DNA of 64,000 bases, taken from IMG/VR virus record IMGVR_UViG_3300033512_000504; one strand, 5' to 3'. The notes beneath the pieces were generated by a model. That model saw only the letters and a list, made by a program, of their open reading frames with translations, did no database searches and was not told where the DNA came from. Below, one piece after another: positions 28,676 to 63,206 of the stretch (within the stretch, counting starts at the first letter, position 1; each line of letters starts with the position of its first letter). This DNA comes from a virus. Both the position numbers and the translations under genes were made by a program.

Positions 28676-28790
28676 TATGCCAATAGAATCTTTGAATTTA
28701 AAATATATATCTTGATTTTTAATATTTAACTGATATAATGATTTTGAAAATTAAAGAGGATTTAATTTAAAAATTTGGTATAATATAATT

Positions 28791-28877
28791 ATGAAAACGT
28801 ATTTAGACAACCTTAGTTCGCTATCAAGTAGCAGTTATTGCTCCTTGATCCGCAGGGGTTTGTCTTGCGATTTCTAG
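28791..28877 (+). CDS. putative attenuator leader peptide, Ser/Cys-rich (MKTYLDNLSSLSSSSYCSLIRRGLSCDF)
   Basis: 8 Ser and 2 Cys codons in 28; precedes a terminator and tRNA-Cys/Ser genes. Confidence 0.65.
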   Translation: MKTYLDNLSSLSSSSYCSLIRRGLSCDF

Positions 28878-39743: not shown

Positions 39744-39836
39744 ATGAATACTGTTATAGATATGAGAGATATGCGCTGGGATAGGATGAGCCTTCGGGTT
39801 CCTGCCTACGATCCCGCTTTATCTGCGTATAGATAA
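39744..39836 (+). CDS. putative attenuator leader peptide, Met-rich (MNTVIDMRDMRWDRMSLRVPAYDPALSAYR)
   Basis: 3 internal ATG codons plus one ATA; precedes a terminator and two CAT tRNAs. Confidence 0.6.
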   Translation: MNTVIDMRDMRWDRMSLRVPAYDPALSAYR

Positions 39837-39890: not shown

Positions 39891-39935
39891 GTGTCGAAAT
39901 TTGATCTTTTAAAAATGAATATAGTTTAATATGAT

Positions 39936-40450: not shown

Positions 40451-41820
40451 ATCAACTACCCAATGACTAAAGATCATTGGGTTTGCGAGACCTTATCTCA
40501 CTATTAGCACGTTGATGGTGCTTGCCTATTAGGTTCAATCTACCGTCAATAGGTATATTAAACGAAACAGGGAGTTCTACGCCTTTTACTTTCTTTCTCA
40601 TGGCGTAACGATTTGCAATGTTTATTGATGCATTCCAGTCAGCATCAAAAACTTTGCTATCGCTTGTGTAATACCTACATCCCTGTCTTTTTCCTTTTTT
40701 AATACCTCTATAGTCATTCTTTGAGGTATAGGCAGGGTCAACCGTTACCACTATTTTCCCCTGTAGTGGTGCCTTGTAGGTTAATATTCTTCTTAAATCA
40801 AAATATGGAACTTGAGCTTGTTTGTTATTGAATTTCTTTCCTCTGTGGTGTTGTTTTATTCCACTCAAATCTTCCATTACTATTACATTGCATTTTGTTT
40901 CTAGGATTTTGTTCGAAATAAGATGTGATTCGTTTTTATTCTTATTGAACTCTTTTTTCTTAAGTGTTTTTAGTTTTTTCTGTGCTGAACGAGAAAAAGA
41001 AGTCTTACTCTTTGATTTAAATATTCTCTTTTTATATCTAAGTTTTCGTTTCTCTTTAAGAAATTGTTTATCTGTTATTGCTATGCCTTCCGATGTAGTA
41101 GCTAATCTTTTTATCCCCAAGTCTATTCCAATACAACCGTTTTCAATTAGTGTTGGTGTATTGACTTCAAAGGAAACTGAAAGCCATATATCATTATTCC
41201 TTACAAAAAGAAGTGGATCACAAACAGAATATTTTAAAAACATATCTTTGAATTTATCATATGGAGAATACGAGCAAACTATTCTTTTTCCTGTAGTTGT
41301 TAGTTTTATTTGATTATTAGGAAGAAAAGTGTATATTCTTTTGTCCAGTCTAATTGAAAGGTTTTCTTGTTTTGCTGCTTCAGTAATATTTTGGTGATTT
41401 GATTGAATAGTTTTATATGTGGAGTAAACCGAATCTTTTGCTCTGATGATTACTTGAGATGGACAATTTGGAAATAGGTTTCTGCATTGATGGTAGTTTT
41501 TGTCATGGATTAGTTTCTTATCAACGGTTTTAGATTCAAAAACATATTCTGCCATATAATTCCAAACTTTTTGATGTTCCAAAAGCATATCGACAAGAGA
41601 GGTTTTATCTTCTTGCTTTTGGAATTGGAGTTTAATATTATATGTTAAAACGTTCATATTTATGTATTTCTATATTTATTTATCATTTTCCTTTATTTTT
41701 GTTGCTTTTTGTTAAAATATAGCTATAATATAGAAAATAAGAAAGGAGATGGGCGGATTTAGACTGGTTGAAAATGGTTTCGCTTACCCACGACACTGAA
41801 GATGTCGGGGTTTCCGCTCA
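40451..41820 (-). mobile_element. non-autonomous IS200/IS605 (tnpB-only) element
   Basis: Left end TGAGCGGAAACCCC..GGGTAAGCGAA (41820 downward) resembles the 54059 left end; right end CCCAATGA..TCATTGGGTAGTTGAT. Confidence 0.75.
40467..41657 (-). CDS. tnpB: TnpB, copy 2 (Zn-finger cysteines largely absent)
   Basis: GIDLG, VMEDL, DADWNAS; no CxxC pairs before RuvC-III. Confidence 0.9.
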   Translation of the reverse strand: MNVLTYNIKLQFQKQEDKTSLVDMLLEHQKVWNYMAEYVFESKTVDKKLIHDKNYHQCRNLFPNCPSQVIIRAKDSVYSTYKTIQSNHQNITEAAKQENLSIRLDKRIYTFLPNNQIKLTTTGKRIVCSYSPYDKFKDMFLKYSVCDPLLFVRNNDIWLSVSFEVNTPTLIENGCIGIDLGIKRLATTSEGIAITDKQFLKEKRKLRYKKRIFKSKSKTSFSRSAQKKLKTLKKKEFNKNKNESHLISNKILETKCNVIVMEDLSGIKQHHRGKKFNNKQAQVPYFDLRRILTYKAPLQGKIVVTVDPAYTSKNDYRGIKKGKRQGCRYYTSDSKVFDADWNASINIANRYAMRKKVKGVELPVSFNIPIDGRLNLIGKHHQRANSEIRSRKPNDL

Positions 41821-43115: not shown

Positions 43116-43907
43116 ATGATATTAAAGCATTATGAATTAAACGAACACGAACAAGCGTTAGCAAATATGACTGTTCAAGAATTTGATAAATATATGACAG
43201 ACAATTATGCACAGCTTTTCAAGAACCGATTTCGGACTCCTGAAGATCAATATATTATGCCTATGCATTTTGGATTTGAAATCGGACCGGGTTGGCGTCA
43301 TGTATTGGATTCTTTATGTTCTAAATTAAAATTCATTCAAGATCATTTCAATGTGACGTGCGTATTCGACCAAATCAAAGAAAAAATGGGAGGGGCACGA
43401 TTTTACAGCCATGTTGAAATCAATCAATCTTCAAATTTAACAGAAAAAGAATATGCTATTATCGACGATATAATTTCAACGCTTGTTTCAAATAGCGAAG
43501 AGTATTGCGACTATATTTGTGAAGTTATCGGGAATAATATTGATCCTTGGGAGAAGATAAAGTTAGGTGGATGGTATTATGGATGTGGACTAGAAGGATT
43601 CAAGGTTCAATGGGAAGATTCTCCAGATAGAATTATAGCTGCTGAAAAAGCTTACGAACGGTCATCAAAGTTGCATGATATCGAATCTCGCATGGGAATT
43701 TTAAATGACGAGGAATTAGACGCAATAGAAGAAAGAATAGCAGAAAAAGAAGAAGAAATAAGAAACAAAACACTAGCCGTTTGTGATCGCATAGAGGCTA
43801 AGTTTAAATTAAATCAAGCAAAAAATGTAGACAAAAACAAAGAAAAAGTTGATGGTCAAGTTTGGTCGAATTTTAGTCCAACATTTGACGATATCGAAGA
43901 ATATTAA
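43116..43907 (+). CDS. conserved-looking phage hypothetical protein
   Basis: GFE.GPGW, QIKEK.GG.RFY, C.V.G motifs. Confidence 0.6.
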   Translation: MILKHYELNEHEQALANMTVQEFDKYMTDNYAQLFKNRFRTPEDQYIMPMHFGFEIGPGWRHVLDSLCSKLKFIQDHFNVTCVFDQIKEKMGGARFYSHVEINQSSNLTEKEYAIIDDIISTLVSNSEEYCDYICEVIGNNIDPWEKIKLGGWYYGCGLEGFKVQWEDSPDRIIAAEKAYERSSKLHDIESRMGILNDEELDAIEERIAEKEEEIRNKTLAVCDRIEAKFKLNQAKNVDKNKEKVDGQVWSNFSPTFDDIEEY

Positions 43908-43917
43908 ATAATAAAGT

Positions 43918-43992
43918 GTCCCTATAGTGTAATGGACAGCACAAAAGCCTTCTAAGCTTTTAGTCTAGGTTCGAATCCTAGTAGGGACGCCA
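43918..43992 (+). tRNA. tRNA-Arg(TCT)
   Basis: GTCCCTA/TAGGGAC, CT TCT AA loop, GCCA. Confidence 0.95.
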
Positions 43993-44064: not shown

Positions 44065-44340
44065 ATGATAGATTGTCCAATATGTTTAGGAAATGGCGAA
44101 TTAAAAATATTCAGTAAAACTACTCCAACTATCAAATGCCATTTCTGTGAAGGTTTAAAACAAATAGAAGAGATACACCTAGAGTGGATAGAACAAGGTA
44201 AAATGTTGAAAAACAATAGGATTTCTAGCCAATTAACATTGAAGGAAGCTGCGACCTTGTTAGAAGTAGATGTGCTATGTTTGTCGGATATGGAAAATGG
44301 CAAAGTCAAACCTAATATGGATTTAATCAACTATATTTAG
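44065..44340 (+). CDS. DnaJ-type Zn finger plus XRE helix-turn-helix protein
   Basis: CPICLGNG, CHFCEG; LTLKEAA...LSDMENG. Confidence 0.7.
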   Translation: MIDCPICLGNGELKIFSKTTPTIKCHFCEGLKQIEEIHLEWIEQGKMLKNNRISSQLTLKEAATLLEVDVLCLSDMENGKVKPNMDLINYI

Positions 44341-44900
44341 GCAAGAACGTTTTTGTTGTAAATTATGTAATGTGTATCATTGTTGTTTGGATCTGCTGCG
44401 TTGGGAATAACTACAGAAATACCATCAATACCATTATCTACCATTAACCGAACAAATTCATTTGGATTTTGGTGAGAAAATACATCTGCCCATATAAGCA
44501 TTAATTGTTCAATAGCGTTATTGTCATCCAATATGTTTTGAATCAACATGCGTCTTCCAATGTTGTAATTCTCATGCCAATTTGAAACTGCTATCTCTAT
44601 TCGCTCTCTGTCCATGCCTTGTAATATTTTATCGATTTGTCTGTAATTAAGTTTAGGCGATGATTCTGTCAATATGTTAGCGTTTTGTAATGTTTTTCTA
44701 GTTATATTACTACCATAAAATCCAGCATTTTCTTCAGATACGGTAAAATATATTCCCGGACCATGTGCTTTTGATGAAGATAATTCTTTCCCGAGCGTGT
44801 TTACAGCATAGTCGTGATCAAAATCGTTTATATCAATAGGATTCTCGTCGCCCCTGAATAACGACATTTGATCTTCTTTTGCTTTTTTATACCAGTTCAT
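44337..44900 (-). CDS. ART-fold-like protein with MNWYKKA N-terminus
   Basis: LFRG, HGPGIYFT, A.FYG, DGI...HYIIYN. Confidence 0.5.
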   Translation of the reverse strand: MNWYKKAKEDQMSLFRGDENPIDINDFDHDYAVNTLGKELSSSKAHGPGIYFTVSEENAGFYGSNITRKTLQNANILTESSPKLNYRQIDKILQGMDRERIEIAVSNWHENYNIGRRMLIQNILDDNNAIEQLMLIWADVFSHQNPNEFVRLMVDNGIDGISVVIPNAADPNNNDTHYIIYNKNVLA

Positions 44901-45050
44901 TATTAATATTTCAAAAAACTGCCGATTATGTCCTTTTTATGGATTTTTGAAGATTATACTTGATTTTGAAAAATTATTATGTATAATGGAGTTATAAATT
45001 AAAGGAATTTAGAAAACGATTTTGAATAAGTAGAGATAGGAGTTCACAAT

Positions 45051-45125
45051 ATGTCATTTATGCAACAACAGAATAATCAAAATAACCAAAAGCCTGAGGG
45101 CTTCTTGGAACGGATTATTCTGTAA
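45051..45125 (+). CDS. putative attenuator leader peptide, Gln/Asn-rich (MSFMQQQNNQNNQKPEGFLERIIL)
   Basis: SD GGAG at an 8-nt spacing; nine consecutive Q/N codons; precedes Asn/Gln/Asn tRNAs. Confidence 0.8.
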   Translation: MSFMQQQNNQNNQKPEGFLERIIL

Positions 45126-45147
45126 AAAGCATAATCAAAGTCCACTG

Positions 45148-45179
45148 AAGACCCTCGGAAATTTCTGAGGGTCTTTTTT
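45148..45179 (+). terminator. intrinsic terminator (attenuator 3)
   Basis: AAGACCCTCGGAA-AT-TTCTGAGGGTCTT followed by a T run. Confidence 0.85.
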
Positions 45180-45204
45180 ATTGATCTTTTAACAATTTAA
45201 ATAT

Positions 45205-45280
45205 TCCGGTGTAGCTCAGTTGGTAGAGTAGGTGACTGTTAATCACCCCGTCGCTGGTTCGAGTCCAGCCACCGGAGCCA
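45205..45280 (+). tRNA. tRNA-Asn(GTT)
   Basis: TCCGGTG/CACCGGA, G73, CCA. Confidence 0.95.
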
Positions 45281-45286
45281 TTTTAT

Positions 45287-45362
45287 TGACTCGTAGTACA
45301 ATTGGCAGTACACCAGATTTTGATTCTGGGTGTTGGTGGTTCGAGTCCACCCGAGTCAACCA
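45287..45362 (+). tRNA. tRNA-Gln(TTG)
   Basis: TGACTCG/CGAGTCA, TT TTG AT loop, CCA. Confidence 0.95.
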
Positions 45363-45379
45363 TTTTAAAATTTGAATAT

Positions 45380-45455
45380 TCCTGATTAGCTCAATTGGTG
45401 GAGCAAGATGCTGTTAACATCGAGGTTCGGGGTCCGAGTCCCTGATCAGGAGCCA
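45380..45455 (+). tRNA. tRNA-Asn(GTT), second copy
   Basis: TCCTGAT/ATCAGGA, CT GTT AA loop; T-loop has TCC instead of TTC. Confidence 0.9.
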
Positions 45456-45460
45456 TTTTG

Positions 45461-45499
45461 TGGCAGTAGCAAAATGTTTTGCTACTGCCATATTTTTTT
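45461..45499 (+). terminator. hairpin terminator after the Asn/Gln cluster
   Basis: TGGCAGTAGCAAAA..TTTTGCTACTGCCA followed by a T run. Confidence 0.75.
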
Positions 45500-45568: not shown

Positions 45569-46276
45569 ATGAACATGAATAGGAAAACAAGTCCAATATG
45601 GATTAGTTGCACAAAAGAAGAGTTTTCTGAATTAATTAAGAAAAGCAAAACTTTTACAGAGGCATTGGCGTTTTTTGGATTAGGGAATAAGGGTAATAAT
45701 TATAGAACATTAAGAGAAAGAATGGATTATGAGAATGTTCAATATGCGCATTTATATGAAAACATTTACAGAAAAAAAGAATTTGGTAAAAAAACACCCA
45801 TTCAAAATATTCTTGTAGAAGGGTCTAAATATTCAAGACCTGATTTAAAGAGAAGACTTTTGGAGGAAAATTTACTAGAGAACAGGTGCTCAGTATGTGG
45901 GTTAATGCCAGAGTGGGAAGGAATGTCTTTAGTTATGATATTAGATCATATTAATGGTATTTCTAATGATAATAGGTTATCTAATTTAAGATTTATATGT
46001 CCTAATTGCAATAGTCAGACAAAGACATTTTCTGGTCGCAACGTAAAAAGACCAATAGATCCGAATAAAATTTGCAAATGCGGGAATAAAAAATGGGTAT
46101 TAGCTAAATTGTGTAAGGAGTGTTCGGGCATTGAGCTTCGTAAATGTGAGCATCCAACAAAAGAGCAATTAGCCGAAGATATATGTACATTATCTTGGGT
46201 AGCAATCGGAAAGAAATATGGCGTATCCGACTCTGCCTGCAAGAAATGGGCAAGGAAATACGGATTAATTGTATAA
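45569..46276 (+). CDS. HNH endonuclease with C-terminal helix-turn-helix
   Basis: CSVC, LDHING..DNR.SNLRFICPNC. Confidence 0.9.
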   Translation: MNMNRKTSPIWISCTKEEFSELIKKSKTFTEALAFFGLGNKGNNYRTLRERMDYENVQYAHLYENIYRKKEFGKKTPIQNILVEGSKYSRPDLKRRLLEENLLENRCSVCGLMPEWEGMSLVMILDHINGISNDNRLSNLRFICPNCNSQTKTFSGRNVKRPIDPNKICKCGNKKWVLAKLCKECSGIELRKCEHPTKEQLAEDICTLSWVAIGKKYGVSDSACKKWARKYGLIV

Positions 46277-46669: not shown

Positions 46670-48178
46670 TTAAACGACCACATCAGTACCTACAATAGCT
46701 GTACCGACTTTTGCCACTGTAACACCAGAAGAACTAGAGCTTGAAGAACTATAATCCTCGGAACTACTACTGGAACTAGAGCTATATTCTTCTGAACTAG
46801 AACTAGAGCTACTTGAGTCTATTGAAGAAGAACTAGAACTACTTGAATCCACTGAAGAAGAACTACTTGAGCTTGAATCTATAGAGCTAGAACTGGAAGA
46901 GCTATAACCAAACGAAGAACTGCTACTAGAGCTTGATGATTCGTTTTCAACTTGTGTCCATCCCGTATTTTGTTCAAGTCTCCATGTTGATCCATTAGAC
47001 CGCAAATGAATATAGTCTCCGCTTACCCATATATCGCCAGTGGTAGGATTAGATGGGGTAGATTGTCCATAAAGTTTTATGTTACCTGCAAAAACATTAT
47101 CGGCATTAATATAATCTAGAGTAGTTCCGCTTTCTACTGTCGAATTCATTATTCGATTATTTGTGCCGCCATAAGCCATAGCAACGAACAATCTTAATTC
47201 AGGAGACCAGCAAACAGCAGCCCATTGATTTTCATCTACTGCAACATACGACCAATCAGTTCCGTTAATAGAAGTCATTACCTCGTCTGCTGACCCAACA
47301 GCAACGAACAATCTTAATTCAGGAGACCAGCAAACAGAATACCATGTATTTGCGGTTACTGAAACATATGACCAATCAGTTCCGTTAGGAGAAGTCATTA
47401 CTTGATTTGCACCAGAATAAGCGACAGAAACGAACAAGCTTAATTCAGGAGACCAGCAAACGGCATTCCATGGATCTGCGGTTACTGAAACATATGACCA
47501 ATCAGTTCCGTTAGGAGAAGTCATTATTCTATTTGTACCAGAATCAGCAACAGCAACAAACAATCTTAATTCAGGAGACCAGCAAATTGATCTCCATGAA
47601 TTTGCTGTTACTAAAACATACGACCAATCAGTTCCGTTAGGAGAAGTCATTACTCTATTTGTACCAGAATCAGCAACAGCAACAAACAATCTTAATTCAG
47701 GAGACCAGCAAACAGAATACCATGTATTTGCGGTTACTGAAACATATGACCAATCAATTCCGTTAGGAGAAGTCATCACTCTATTTGTCCCGCCATAAGC
47801 AACAGCAACAAACAGTTTTAATTCAGGAGACCAGCAAATTGATGTCCAATTACTTGCGGCTACTGAAACATATGACCAATCAGTTCCATTAGGAGAAGTC
47901 ATTACTTGATTTGCACCACCACGAGCGACAGCAACAAATAATCTTAATTCAGGAGACCAGCAAATTGATGTCCATGGATTTAGGTGTACTGAGACAGAAT
48001 TCCAAGTTTTTCCGCCATCCAATCGCACAGCTCCATCAGACGCTATATGAGGGAGACTTCTGCCTTTTACATCTTGAACGGTATTTGTAATTGTTCGTGA
48101 CTCTATAGACACATCTCCAGTTACGGTAAGGTCGCTATGTATTTTTCTTTCTGTCCAGTCTATTACAATAGTTGCCAT
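46670..48178 (-). CDS. virion-type beta-propeller repeat protein with poly-Ser C-terminal tract
   Basis: Seven repeats of about 42 aa (W..VCWSPELRLFVAV...VMTSPNGTDW); about 70 aa of mostly Ser at the C-terminus. Confidence 0.7.
   Translation of the reverse strand: MATIVIDWTERKIHSDLTVTGDVSIESRTITNTVQDVKGRSLPHIASDGAVRLDGGKTWNSVSVHLNPWTSICWSPELRLFVAVARGGANQVMTSPNGTDWSYVSVAASNWTSICWSPELKLFVAVAYGGTNRVMTSPNGIDWSYVSVTANTWYSVCWSPELRLFVAVADSGTNRVMTSPNGTDWSYVLVTANSWRSICWSPELRLFVAVADSGTNRIMTSPNGTDWSYVSVTADPWNAVCWSPELSLFVSVAYSGANQVMTSPNGTDWSYVSVTANTWYSVCWSPELRLFVAVGSADEVMTSINGTDWSYVAVDENQWAAVCWSPELRLFVAMAYGGTNNRIMNSTVESGTTLDYINADNVFAGNIKLYGQSTPSNPTTGDIWVSGDYIHLRSNGSTWRLEQNTGWTQVENESSSSSSSSSFGYSSSSSSSIDSSSSSSSSVDSSSSSSSSIDSSSSSSSSEEYSSSSSSSSEDYSSSSSSSSGVTVAKVGTAIVGTDVVV
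47170..47990 (-). repeat. 7 coding tandem repeats, period 126 nt (one 120 nt)
   Basis: TTAATTCAGGAGACCAGCAAA recurs near 47194, 47314, 47440, 47566, 47692, 47818 and 47944. Confidence 0.9.
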
Positions 48179-54557: not shown

Positions 54558-54609
54558 TATTTTAAAGGATTATTTTATGCTTTTGTTGTGTAATACAAGA
54601 GTTAGCATA

Positions 54610-55806
54610 AATATATTATACAAAAACGTTATGAAAAAGAACTACAAATTCAGATTATATCCTACGAAAAAGCAAGAAAGAGAACTACTTGCAACACTTG
54701 AGGAATGTCGTTTTGTATACAATAAAATACTTGATACTAGAATTAAAACTTATGAATCTGAAAAGAAAACGCTTAACAAATACGATACAAATAATCTAAT
54801 CAAAGAATGGAAAACAGAAAGAGAACCACTTCAAAACATACATTCCCAAGTAGTTCAAAACGTATCAGAGCGAGTAGATTTAGCATTTAAAGCGTTTTTC
54901 CGTCGATGCAAGGAGAAAGGAGAAAAAGCAGGATTCCCAAGATTTAAACAATTTGGTAGATATGACTCATTCTGTTTTCCTCAATCAGGATTTTCTTTAA
55001 CTCAAAACGAAAAACGGTTAAAGCTTTCAAAAATCGGTTGCATTAAAATTGTATCTCATAGAACTCTTCCAGAACAAGTAAAGAGATTAACAATACAAAG
55101 AACAAAAAGTGGCAAATGGCATGCTATATTTTCATGCGTTTTAGCTGATGTAAAGAGAACAAACAATAACCCTGCTGTAGGAATTGATTTAGGATTAAAA
55201 GAGTTTGCAGTTCTTTCTAATGGTGATAAAATAAAAAGAGAACGTTTCTTTAAAGAGGGTGAAAAGAAATTAGCAAAGGAACAACGCAAATTTTCAAAAT
55301 TAGATAAGAAAACTCCAGAACGGAACAAACAAAGAATGATTGTTGGTAAAGTGCATGAGAAGATTCAAAATCAACGTTCTGATTTCACACATAAGTTATC
55401 AAAAGCACTTGTTCAAAAATACGGAATTATTTGTTTGGAGAAATTAAATATCAAATCCATGCAAGAACAAGATAAGATTTCAGTAAATGGCAAAGAAATA
55501 AAGGCAACAAGAACACATAAAAGTATACAGGATGTTGCTTGGAATCAATTCGTACAACAATTAGAGTATAAAGCGGAAGAAGCTGGTACTAGGATTGTGT
55601 TCGTAAATCCCAAGAATACTACTAAGATGTGTTCAAGTTGTGGTAAATTAACTAGTAAGGAACTATCAGATAGAATCCATGAATGCAGTTTGTGTGGATT
55701 AGTAATGGATAGGGATTTAAATGCTAGTAAAAATATTTTGAGAATCGGAATGGATTCTCTTAGGGATAGAGATATTCCTATAGAAGCCCCTACGCCTTTA
55801 GGCTAG
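54610..55806 (+). CDS. tnpB: TnpB, copy 3
   Basis: YKFRLYP, GIDLG, CLEKL, CSSC/CSLC, DRDLNAS. Confidence 0.95.
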   Translation, partial: NILYKNVMKKNYKFRLYPTKKQERELLATLEECRFVYNKILDTRIKTYESEKKTLNKYDTNNLIKEWKTEREPLQNIHSQVVQNVSERVDLAFKAFFRRCKEKGEKAGFPRFKQFGRYDSFCFPQSGFSLTQNEKRLKLSKIGCIKIVSHRTLPEQVKRLTIQRTKSGKWHAIFSCVLADVKRTNNNPAVGIDLGLKEFAVLSNGDKIKRERFFKEGEKKLAKEQRKFSKLDKKTPERNKQRMIVGKVHEKIQNQRSDFTHKLSKALVQKYGIICLEKLNIKSMQEQDKISVNGKEIKATRTHKSIQDVAWNQFVQQLEYKAEEAGTRIVFVNPKNTTKMCSSCGKLTSKELSDRIHECSLCGLVMDRDLNASKNILRIGMDSLRDRDIPIEAPTPLG

Positions 55807-63052: not shown

Positions 63053-63136
63053 ATGAACATAAATACTATCCATATTCCAGAACATATTGAGGAACCCATT
63101 GCCCTCAGGCACGGGTATGGAATTGGTTTGTTCTAA
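63053..63136 (+). CDS. putative attenuator leader peptide, Ile/His/Pro/Glu-rich (MNINTIHIPEHIEEPIALRHGYGIGLF)
   Basis: SD AAGG; codons 6-16 are only I/H/P/E; precedes His/Ile/Pro/Glu tRNAs. Confidence 0.8.
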   Translation: MNINTIHIPEHIEEPIALRHGYGIGLF

Positions 63137-63191: not shown

Positions 63192-63206
63192 ATTGCTCTT
63201 TTTAGG

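Follow-up and report, generated by a model that had tools for sequence, protein, structure and literature searches.

What does a run of nine consecutive Gln and Asn codons do immediately ahead of genes for tRNA-Asn, tRNA-Gln, and a second tRNA-Asn? The question is raised by a locus in IMG/VR virus record IMGVR_UViG_3300033512_000504, examined here within a stretch of 64,000 nucleotides (nt) referred to as the window. The locus, termed the Asn/Gln unit, spans ~530 nt from its promoter to its last terminator. Its short leader open reading frame (ORF) was noticed in an earlier reading of the letters alone (the sequence-only reading), which interpreted it as an attenuator. The observation was confirmed, and the unit is probably a trp-type, ribosome-mediated transcription attenuator gating a three-gene phage tRNA operon (Asn, Gln, Asn), as judged from its sequence and from modeled RNA folds.

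Organization of the Asn/Gln unit

The unit comprises the following features.

44960-44987, plus strand: promoter of the sigma-70 type, with −35 TTGATT, a 16-nt spacer, and −10 TATAAT (10/12 consensus matches)
45038-45042, plus strand: Shine-Dalgarno sequence AGGAG, 8 nt ahead of the ATG at 45051
45051-45125, plus strand: leader ORF MSFMQQQNNQNNQKPEGFLERIIL, 24 codons plus TAA, with the stop codon at 45123
45063-45089, plus strand: Gln/Asn control run, codons 5 to 13 (CAA CAA CAG AAT AAT CAA AAT AAC CAA)
45147-45179, plus strand: intrinsic terminator (regions 3 and 4), with a 13-base-pair (bp) stem (45147-45159/45164-45176), a 4-nt loop, and a T run to 45179 (−20.4 kcal/mol)
45182-45194, plus strand: boxA-like motif TGATCTTTTAACA, between the attenuator terminator and the first tRNA
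45205-45280, plus strand: tRNA-Asn (GTT), CCA encoded, 66.1 bits in Rfam
45287-45362, plus strand: tRNA-Gln (TTG), CCA encoded, 65.2 bits in Rfam
45380-45455, plus strand: second copy of tRNA-Asn (GTT), CCA encoded, 53 bits in Rfam, 72% identical to the first
45459-45492, plus strand: operon-end terminator, with a 15-bp stem followed by T7 (−23.5 kcal/mol)

Much of this layout had been claimed from the letters. The ribosome-binding site 8 nt before the ATG is borne out by AGGAG, the nine consecutive Gln/Asn codons (four CAA, one CAG, three AAT, and one AAC) by codons 5 to 13, and the order tRNA-Asn, tRNA-Gln, tRNA-Asn behind the leader by the tRNA calls and by Rfam scores that reach or exceed the gathering level for all three genes. 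The terminator had been placed at 45148-45179; the end of its T run agrees, and its stem was found to start at 45147. The hairpin begins 21 nt 3' of the leader stop codon.

The control run stands out against the background of the window. A Gln/Asn run of at least nine residues occurs in 1 of 937 small ORFs (15 to 45 amino acids, six frames), which is the leader ORF itself, and runs of at least eight residues drawn from any two amino acids occur in four, two of which are tRNA leaders. Gln and Asn account for 9 of 23 codons in the leader, compared with a background frequency of 0.098 in the long ORFs of the window (binomial P = 1.8e-4). The leader favors CAA and AAT, the preferred synonyms of the phage itself, which uses CAA at 22.8 per thousand codons versus 6.9 for CAG and AAT at 50.5 versus 17.4 for AAC.

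From the position of the promoter, we infer a transcription start near 44994. An extended −10 element was considered and rejected, as the TG lies one base too near TATAAT. A scan with the sigma-70-type consensus found no second promoter-like site on the plus strand between the leader promoter and the tRNAs, and the interval from the T run to tRNA position +1 is only 25 nt; the tRNAs therefore appear to be transcribable only through the terminator.

Alternative RNA structures and simulated ribosomes

Folding of the leader RNA with ViennaRNA gave three alternative structures with common strands, namely, a protector, an antiterminator, and the terminator. The strands that precede the terminator are as follows.

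45068-45078, plus strand: region 1, ACAGAAUAAUC, the 5' strand of the protector, inside the Gln/Asn codons (CAG AAU AAU C) and pairing with 45113-45123
45086-45108, plus strand: inner hairpin (CCAA/AAGCC ... GGCUU/UUGG), enclosed by the protector and holding the antiterminator strand when there is no stall
45094-45104, plus strand: region 2, CUGAGGGCUUC, the antiterminator strand, pairing with 45147-45158
45113-45123, plus strand: region 2', GAUUAUUCUGU, the 3' strand of the protector, whose first six bases pair with 45131-45136 in the antiterminator fold

The protector domain (45063-45126) has a predicted energy of −21.9 kcal/mol. In the antiterminator, CTGAGGGCTTC (45094-45104; CUGAGGG/CUUC) pairs with GAAG-A-CCCTCGG (45147-45158) in two blocks of 7 and 4 bp separated by a single bulged A, and this duplex is extended by two inner helices, UGGA:UCCA (45106-09/45141-44) and GAUUAU:AUAAUC (45113-18/45131-36), giving −28.7 kcal/mol for the full domain. 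The duplex itself (−18.2 kcal/mol) was equaled in only 1 of 1,000 dinucleotide shuffles of the upstream segment, and the leader RNA as a whole folds better than shuffled sequences (z = −6.0). The sequence-only reading had named folding as a check on its proposal: all three alternatives were found, and the antiterminator is the same 45094-45104/45147-45158 pairing that it had proposed. The protector helix, the two inner antiterminator helices, the promoter, and the operon-end terminator are additional to it.

Ribosomes were simulated by barring pairing from −15 to +13 nt relative to the first base of the A-site codon, on a transcript ending at the terminator loop, so that the 3' arm was not yet present. 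For every A-site position between the ATG and the sixth Gln/Asn codon, 11 nt of the 13-nt 5' arm of the terminator paired with 45094-45104. This number fell to 10, 7, and 4 with the last three Gln/Asn codons in the A site, and A sites at 45090-45114 abolished the pairing. Folding without a ribosome yielded both the protector and the terminator. The proposition that a stall in the Gln/Asn run would free the antiterminator strand thus holds for approximately the first six or seven codons, and it fails in part for the last two or three, where the ribosome partly covers that strand. The attenuator interpretation is nonetheless supported, in that every element it calls for at the sequence level is present.

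Leaders that match the tRNAs behind them

Three sister units in the window share the layout of a promoter, a short ORF, a terminator, and tRNAs.

28791-28877, plus strand: leader MKTYLDNLSSLSSSSYCSLIRRGLSCDF and terminator ahead of tRNA-Cys, with two tRNA-Ser genes further downstream (Ser/Cys unit)
39744-39836, plus strand: leader MNTVIDMRDMRWDRMSLRVPAYDPALSAYR and terminator ahead of two tRNAs with CAT anticodons; the weakest codon match of the four units
63053-63136, plus strand: leader MNINTIHIPEHIEEPIALRHGYGIGLF and terminator ahead of tRNA-His, Ile, Pro, and Glu

Cognate residues are enriched in each of these leaders (P = 1.2e-4 for MKTYLDNLSSLSSSSYCSLIRRGLSCDF, 0.02 for MNTVIDMRDMRWDRMSLRVPAYDPALSAYR, and 9e-5 for MNINTIHIPEHIEEPIALRHGYGIGLF), and in each the strand just 3' of the control codons is complementary to the 5' arm of the terminator, with a duplex energy matched by 12, 1, and 4 per 1,000 shuffles, respectively. 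In the footprint simulation the sister units behave as the Asn/Gln unit does, although a clear protector helix is seen only in the latter. Across the four units, the true pairing of leaders with tRNA sets gives 36 cognate residues versus at most 9 for any derangement and is the best of the 24 permutations. The fourth unit has a homologue in the relative L103, where leader MSTRIHIPEPIEPVNREGYGTPMY and a terminator precede tRNA-His, Ile, Glu, Glu, Pro, and Glu. The ATG of the Ser/Cys leader follows a TATAAT by ~6 nt and lacks a Shine-Dalgarno sequence (28779-28793); unlike the Asn/Gln unit, this unit may be translated from a leaderless mRNA.

A profile of a neighboring protein family of 187 amino acids led to two further IMG/VR contigs, G003 and G004. 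G003 (IMGVR_UViG_3300029288_000066) is 229 kb long with 56 tRNA matches and is only distantly related to the window phage (28% identity in the 187-amino-acid family protein); its promoters appear Bacteroidota-like (TAnnTTTG). Its units were located as a terminator plus the motif GTTCTTTAAAA, and the ORFs just upstream were then read. The leader runs and the tRNAs behind them are as follows.

..SWSSRRRSSSR..: tRNAs for Ser, Arg, and Trp
GGYPSAIDADYGCGTG: tRNAs for Asp, Gly, Ala, Tyr, Met, and Pro
IHINTKTNKHNNT: tRNAs for Asn, His, and Thr
IIKKSISIKIKK: tRNAs for Lys, Ile, and Met
LCLCLLL: tRNAs for Leu and Cys
QRFFQVVFFVQQ: tRNAs for Gln, Phe, Arg, and Val

The true pairing of these six units scores 72, no derangement exceeding 29, and ranks first among the 720 permutations. 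G004 contains homologues of two of the G003 leaders. A crude antiterminator test on the G003 and G004 units, with arms parsed automatically, was nonsignificant for Ser/Arg/Trp and borderline for two others. The unrelated phage G005, reached through a pattern for the 3' half of tRNA-Asn, served as a negative control: its five tRNAs have their own plain promoters and no leaders, so sequences flanking tRNA genes do not produce leaders as a matter of course.

The grouping of amino acids also bears on what such a switch would read. The same device might report amino acid supply, responding to Asn/Gln (amide nitrogen) starvation or to failure of GatCAB transamidation and tuning tRNA output to host nutrition instead of making up for lost tRNAs. 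A stalled ribosome is blind to the cause of a missing charged tRNA, and the Asn/Gln unit does group in one operon, behind one leader, two amino acids with a common amide-donor chemistry and, in many bacteria, a common indirect charging route (GatCAB). Extra tRNA cannot, on the other hand, relieve an amino acid shortage, and other units mix chemically unrelated amino acids just as their tRNAs do (His/Ile/Pro/Glu in the window; Ser/Arg/Trp and Lys/Ile/Met in G003). Grouping that follows the tRNA genes exactly agrees with leaders that sense the products of their own unit rather than with a metabolic rule, and regulation by nutrition is considered unlikely.

Two observations on the wider tRNA complement of these phages may be recorded here. 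The tRNAs of G003 (L083-L087) stand in blocks sorted by amino acid (Lys ×4, Thr ×3, Trp ×3, and several Leu), as if one block were one regulatory unit behind one leader. A tRNA with a CTA anticodon (an amber suppressor, labeled Pyl by ARAGORN) is found in G003 (L087, reverse complement 1823-1897) and in G001 (L090, reverse complement 2302-2377), which hints at reassignment of TAG in the G003/G001 lineage; the window gave no sign of it.

A diverged homologue of the Asn/Gln unit

A homologue of the unit itself was reached via the 263-amino-acid gene beside a tRNA-Arg gene, whose product is 83% identical in L099. L099 is syntenic, with the order promoter, AGGAG, leader MYIMQQNNQNNQKPEGFLERIVL, protector/antiterminator/terminator, TGATCTTTTT, tRNA-Gln (TTG), tRNA-Asn (GTT), and final terminator. 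AGGAG is identical and both promoter hexamer regions are kept; the leader region is 90% identical to that of the window and still spells Q and N, while the tRNA genes are only 61 to 66% identical to those of the window and differ in number and order.

The transcribed leader (44995-45180) differs at 25 positions, and these are distributed unevenly, affecting 4 of 82 helix positions versus 21 of 104 nonhelix positions (Fisher P = 0.002). Three of the four helix changes are G-U/A-U exchanges that keep the pairing, and the fourth is a bulge; the G>A change at 45157 converts G-U to A-U in both the terminator and the antiterminator. The terminator loop, by comparison, is altered at three of its four positions. 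Within the ORF there is a single indel, a 3-nt loss of precisely one CAA codon; the three that lie outside the ORF are of 1 nt each. Codons 2 and 3 carry nonsynonymous changes, and therefore the peptide as such is not conserved; what L099 retains, at the level of sequence, is the reading frame, the control run, and the RNA strands. At 89 nt, the tRNA-Asn of L099 (4028-4116) exceeds the 76 nt of both tRNA-Asn genes of the window; past its anticodon arm it carries an insertion that could be an intron or an additional arm.

This pattern speaks to the possibility that nothing is regulated, i.e., that the mini-ORF is incidental or encodes a free micropeptide and that an ordinary, leaky terminator permits constitutive partial readthrough. 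Small ORFs are plentiful in AT-rich DNA, as the 937 in the window attest, and intrinsic terminators are seldom 100% efficient. Yet the Gln/Asn run is unique among those ORFs, the antiterminator complementarity is rare among shuffles, and 10 independent units, in the window phage and in the distantly related G003, match their own tRNA sets and no others. In L099, moreover, loops, spacers, and tRNA genes have diverged around a retained frame, control run, and set of helices. An unregulated arrangement is accordingly judged very unlikely.

Further relatives were sought. In L001 and L002, from Joint Genome Institute (JGI) metagenomes, the locus is 100% identical and hence offers no covariation. 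When the locus was compared by BLAST with 50,697 GenBank phage records, the tRNAs alone gave matches, at 70 to 80% identity, and exact or degenerate patterns for the leader, the terminator, and the tRNA junctions gave no matches in viral, metagenome, or genome contig sets. The 44 loci around homologues of the 187-amino-acid gene were mostly without tRNAs, synteny was absent when tested with L091, and L101, L102, L104, and L105 were uninformative.

A boxA-like motif between terminators and tRNAs

The sequence TGMTCTTTTWA occurs exactly three times in the window (39902-39912, 45182-45192, and 63194-63204). All three copies lie a few bases past a leader terminator and ahead of tRNAs, against a chance expectation of ~0.8 copies anywhere. 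The motif is retained in L099 (3907-3916, as TGATCTTTTT), and GTTCTTTAAAA occupies the equivalent position in the G003 and G004 units (reverse-complemented L083-L089). As a motif resemblance only, TGATCTTTTAACA is similar to Escherichia coli boxA, TGCTCTTTAACAA, and suggests that transcripts passing the gate may undergo rrn-like, Nus-factor antitermination.

A phage-specific promoter in or just past the terminator, with TGATCTTTT possibly forming part of it and the leader and terminator constituting a separate tiny transcription unit, is very unlikely to drive the tRNAs. Large phages often use their own promoter types, invisible to a sigma-70 scan, and a conserved motif does stand between each terminator and the first tRNA. 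The T run, however, leaves just 25 nt before tRNA position +1, and transcription from the −10-like TAAATAT (45198-45204) would begin within the tRNA. The motif is similar to rrn boxA, which acts on RNA and not as a promoter, and the match of codons to tRNAs and the antiterminator would be left unexplained.

Proposed mechanism and its standing

In the attenuation model, transcription would start from the promoter at 44960-44987, and the leader ORF would be translated as it emerges. When Gln and Asn codons are decoded quickly, the ribosome would pass 45094-45104, reach the stop codon at 45123, and obstruct the inner helices of the antiterminator. The terminator (45147-45176 plus the T run) would then form, and the transcript would stop short of the tRNAs. 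When charged tRNA-Gln or tRNA-Asn is scarce, the ribosome would stall in the Gln/Asn run, which is also the 5' strand of the protector, and so prevent the protector from forming. Region 2 could then pair with the 5' arm of the terminator before the 3' arm is made, and readthrough would yield the three tRNAs. An untranslated leader would form both the protector (45068-45078/45113-45123) and the terminator, giving superattenuation as in the trp leader. Because the tRNA-Asn and tRNA-Gln produced would relieve the signal, the unit would act as a negative-feedback sensor of decoding capacity for the favored CAA and AAT codons. Translation of the ORF, kinetic coupling of ribosome and polymerase, and the physiological signal are parts of the model that we infer; ribosomes could stall because host shutoff or anticodon nucleases have depleted the tRNAs, because the host tRNA pool is mismatched, or because charging is poor.

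Several points weigh against this model. In the simulation, a ribosome stalled near the end of the run, at its final two or three codons, covers part of the antiterminator strand. With a stalled ribosome, the full-length RNA still favors the terminator state (−37.2 kcal/mol versus −28.7 kcal/mol for the antiterminator), and the decision must therefore be kinetic; classical attenuators are likewise under kinetic control. A ribosome at the stop codon (footprint, ~45108-45136) leaves 45094-45104 uncovered, and the folding program still draws the antiterminator helix across it. The antiterminator loop would have to accommodate such a ribosome, which obstructs both inner helices; the argument for termination without a stall is therefore one of sterics and timing (kinetics) rather than of folding. 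In bacteria whose RNA polymerase outruns the ribosomes, as reported for Bacillus subtilis, coupling would need a pause site, and none could be identified. Some phage tRNAs are, by their sequence, ungated, namely, all five tRNAs of G005 and the tRNA-Arg (TCT) of the window (43885-43992; gene at 43918), which has no leader and has a promoter-like TTGACG-16-AATAAT ending 5 nt upstream. Finally, there is one diverged homologue only, and no base pair in it is changed on both sides.

A broader reading, which we offer as a tentative possibility, is that the tRNA blocks of large phages with unrelated hosts are on-demand replacement modules. Codon-matched leaders would detect a collapse of decoding, brought about by host anticodon nucleases, by phage-induced host shutoff, or by a mismatch between the host tRNA pool and phage codons, and would open transcription, while the boxA-like site would promote processive, rrn-like antitermination. 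Such units might then constitute an inducible counterdefense and homeostasis circuit, rather than a mere supplement to codon usage.

Genomic context

The window has a G+C content of 33% and contains 13 tRNA genes together with TnpB-like and HNH genes. It also encodes proteins with matches to phage families only, and the neighboring protein is on record on a 129,663-base contig; the window is treated here as part of a large phage genome. Its DNA occurs in two microbial-mat metagenome runs from two studies, and the locus was listed for no RNA run. Contigs from both runs contained zero leader variants, and excess depth and one G>C difference over the first tRNA were traced to tRNAs of other organisms.

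The nearest genes and other features of the surroundings are as follows.

44337-44900: gene upstream of the unit, in divergent orientation
45569-46276: HNH endonuclease gene, directly 3' of the Asn/Gln operon
40467-41657, minus strand: TnpB/IS605 OrfB-like gene
54577-55806, plus strand: second TnpB/IS605 OrfB-like gene
46670-48178, minus strand: ORF of 502 amino acids
30204-30292: tRNA-Ser with an AGA anticodon (A34)

The two TnpB-like genes lie amid the tRNA units, mobile elements being clustered around the tRNA modules of the window, and in the relatives L008 and L104 TnpB stands beside conserved neighboring genes. The A34 anticodon is unusual for bacteria and phages; this tRNA-Ser is an ARAGORN call that is absent from the gathering-level Rfam matches. 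The 502-amino-acid ORF has a 126-nt periodicity on the opposite strand, with small ORFs at 47407, 47533, 47659, and 47785, and weak WD40-like Pfam matches; it probably encodes a protein of 42-residue repeats.

Comparison with known systems

The classical leader-peptide attenuators of enterobacteria include trpL, hisL, pheL, and leuL and the multivalent thrL (Thr and Ile) and ilvL (Ile/Leu/Val). The Asn/Gln unit resembles them in having a short ORF close to the promoter, control codons clustered within strand 1, and protector (1:2), antiterminator (2:3), and terminator (3:4) helices with common strands. Of these systems thrL and ilvL are closest in form, as one leader senses two amino acids there too. 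The unit differs in being phage borne and in controlling tRNAs instead of biosynthetic enzymes, so that its output would act on the very quantity sensed. It differs further in that the ORF extends 20 nt beyond the antiterminator strand, and a ribosome at the stop codon would block the inner helices and not strand 2.

At the gathering level, Rfam matched the tRNAs only. The best same-strand matches in a permissive scan were His_leader at 25.4 bits (E = 0.03), Thr_leader at 20.7 bits, and Phe_leader at 19.6 bits, a resemblance only, as the gathering thresholds are 49, 55, and 55, respectively. With scores so far below gathering, the unit would work like the His, Thr, and Phe leaders without being a member of those families. 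Permissive scans of the three sister leaders gave weak matches only, driven mostly by the terminators.

In logic, the closest counterpart is the pheM leader of E. coli pheST (phenylalanyl-tRNA synthetase), in which a gene of the translation apparatus is subject to leader-peptide attenuation in response to the charging of one tRNA. Unlike the Asn/Gln unit, pheM controls a synthetase rather than a tRNA, senses a single amino acid, and belongs to a host chromosome. T-boxes, found in Firmicutes, likewise act in cis, switching between terminator and antiterminator according to whether a specific tRNA is charged, but they bind the uncharged tRNA directly, need neither an ORF nor a ribosome, and serve genes for synthetases, biosynthesis, and transport. 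The locus gave no T-box match at the Rfam gathering level or, on 44900-45210, at E values up to 10.

Among Gram-positive attenuators, a leucine-rich attenuator peptide precedes the ilv-leu operon of Staphylococcus aureus (PMC5794164), and polycysteine leaderless short ORFs act as attenuators in mycobacteria (bioRxiv 10.1101/834739). Such leaders resemble those described here in being short ORFs rich in one amino acid, and they differ in that their targets are genes of amino acid metabolism. The position of TGATCTTTTAACA at the start of an untranslated stable-RNA operon recalls rrn boxA, the site being putative and the likeness one of motif only; unlike its rrn counterpart, it stands behind an attenuator, which is not known to occur in rrn operons.

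The Asn/Gln unit thus keeps the form of a classical attenuator and departs from it in the genes controlled. To our knowledge, every leader-peptide attenuator described so far controls genes for amino acid metabolism or for synthetases, and a full-text literature search, whose reach excluded most subscription journals, returned no description of leader-peptide attenuation of tRNA genes. What is most likely new, as read from the sequence, is that the regulated genes are three tRNAs, which would place decoding capacity under direct feedback. There is still debate over why tRNA genes are carried by phages and how they are controlled, and tRNA operons are usually described as being under growth rate and stringent control, not codon-specific feedback. 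If the model is correct, the unit is a sensor of decoding capacity that repairs the deficit it senses, extending an old regulatory paradigm to a new class of genes. The rule that a leader spells out the tRNAs behind it would allow tRNA transcription units to be read from phage genomes and would predict the codons that a phage expects to be limiting in its host, with a bearing on antiphage defenses that target tRNAs. With its complete 1:2, 2:3, and 3:4 anatomy in a compact unit, as in the trp-type leaders that it resembles, the Asn/Gln locus offers a convenient first construct for testing this extension.

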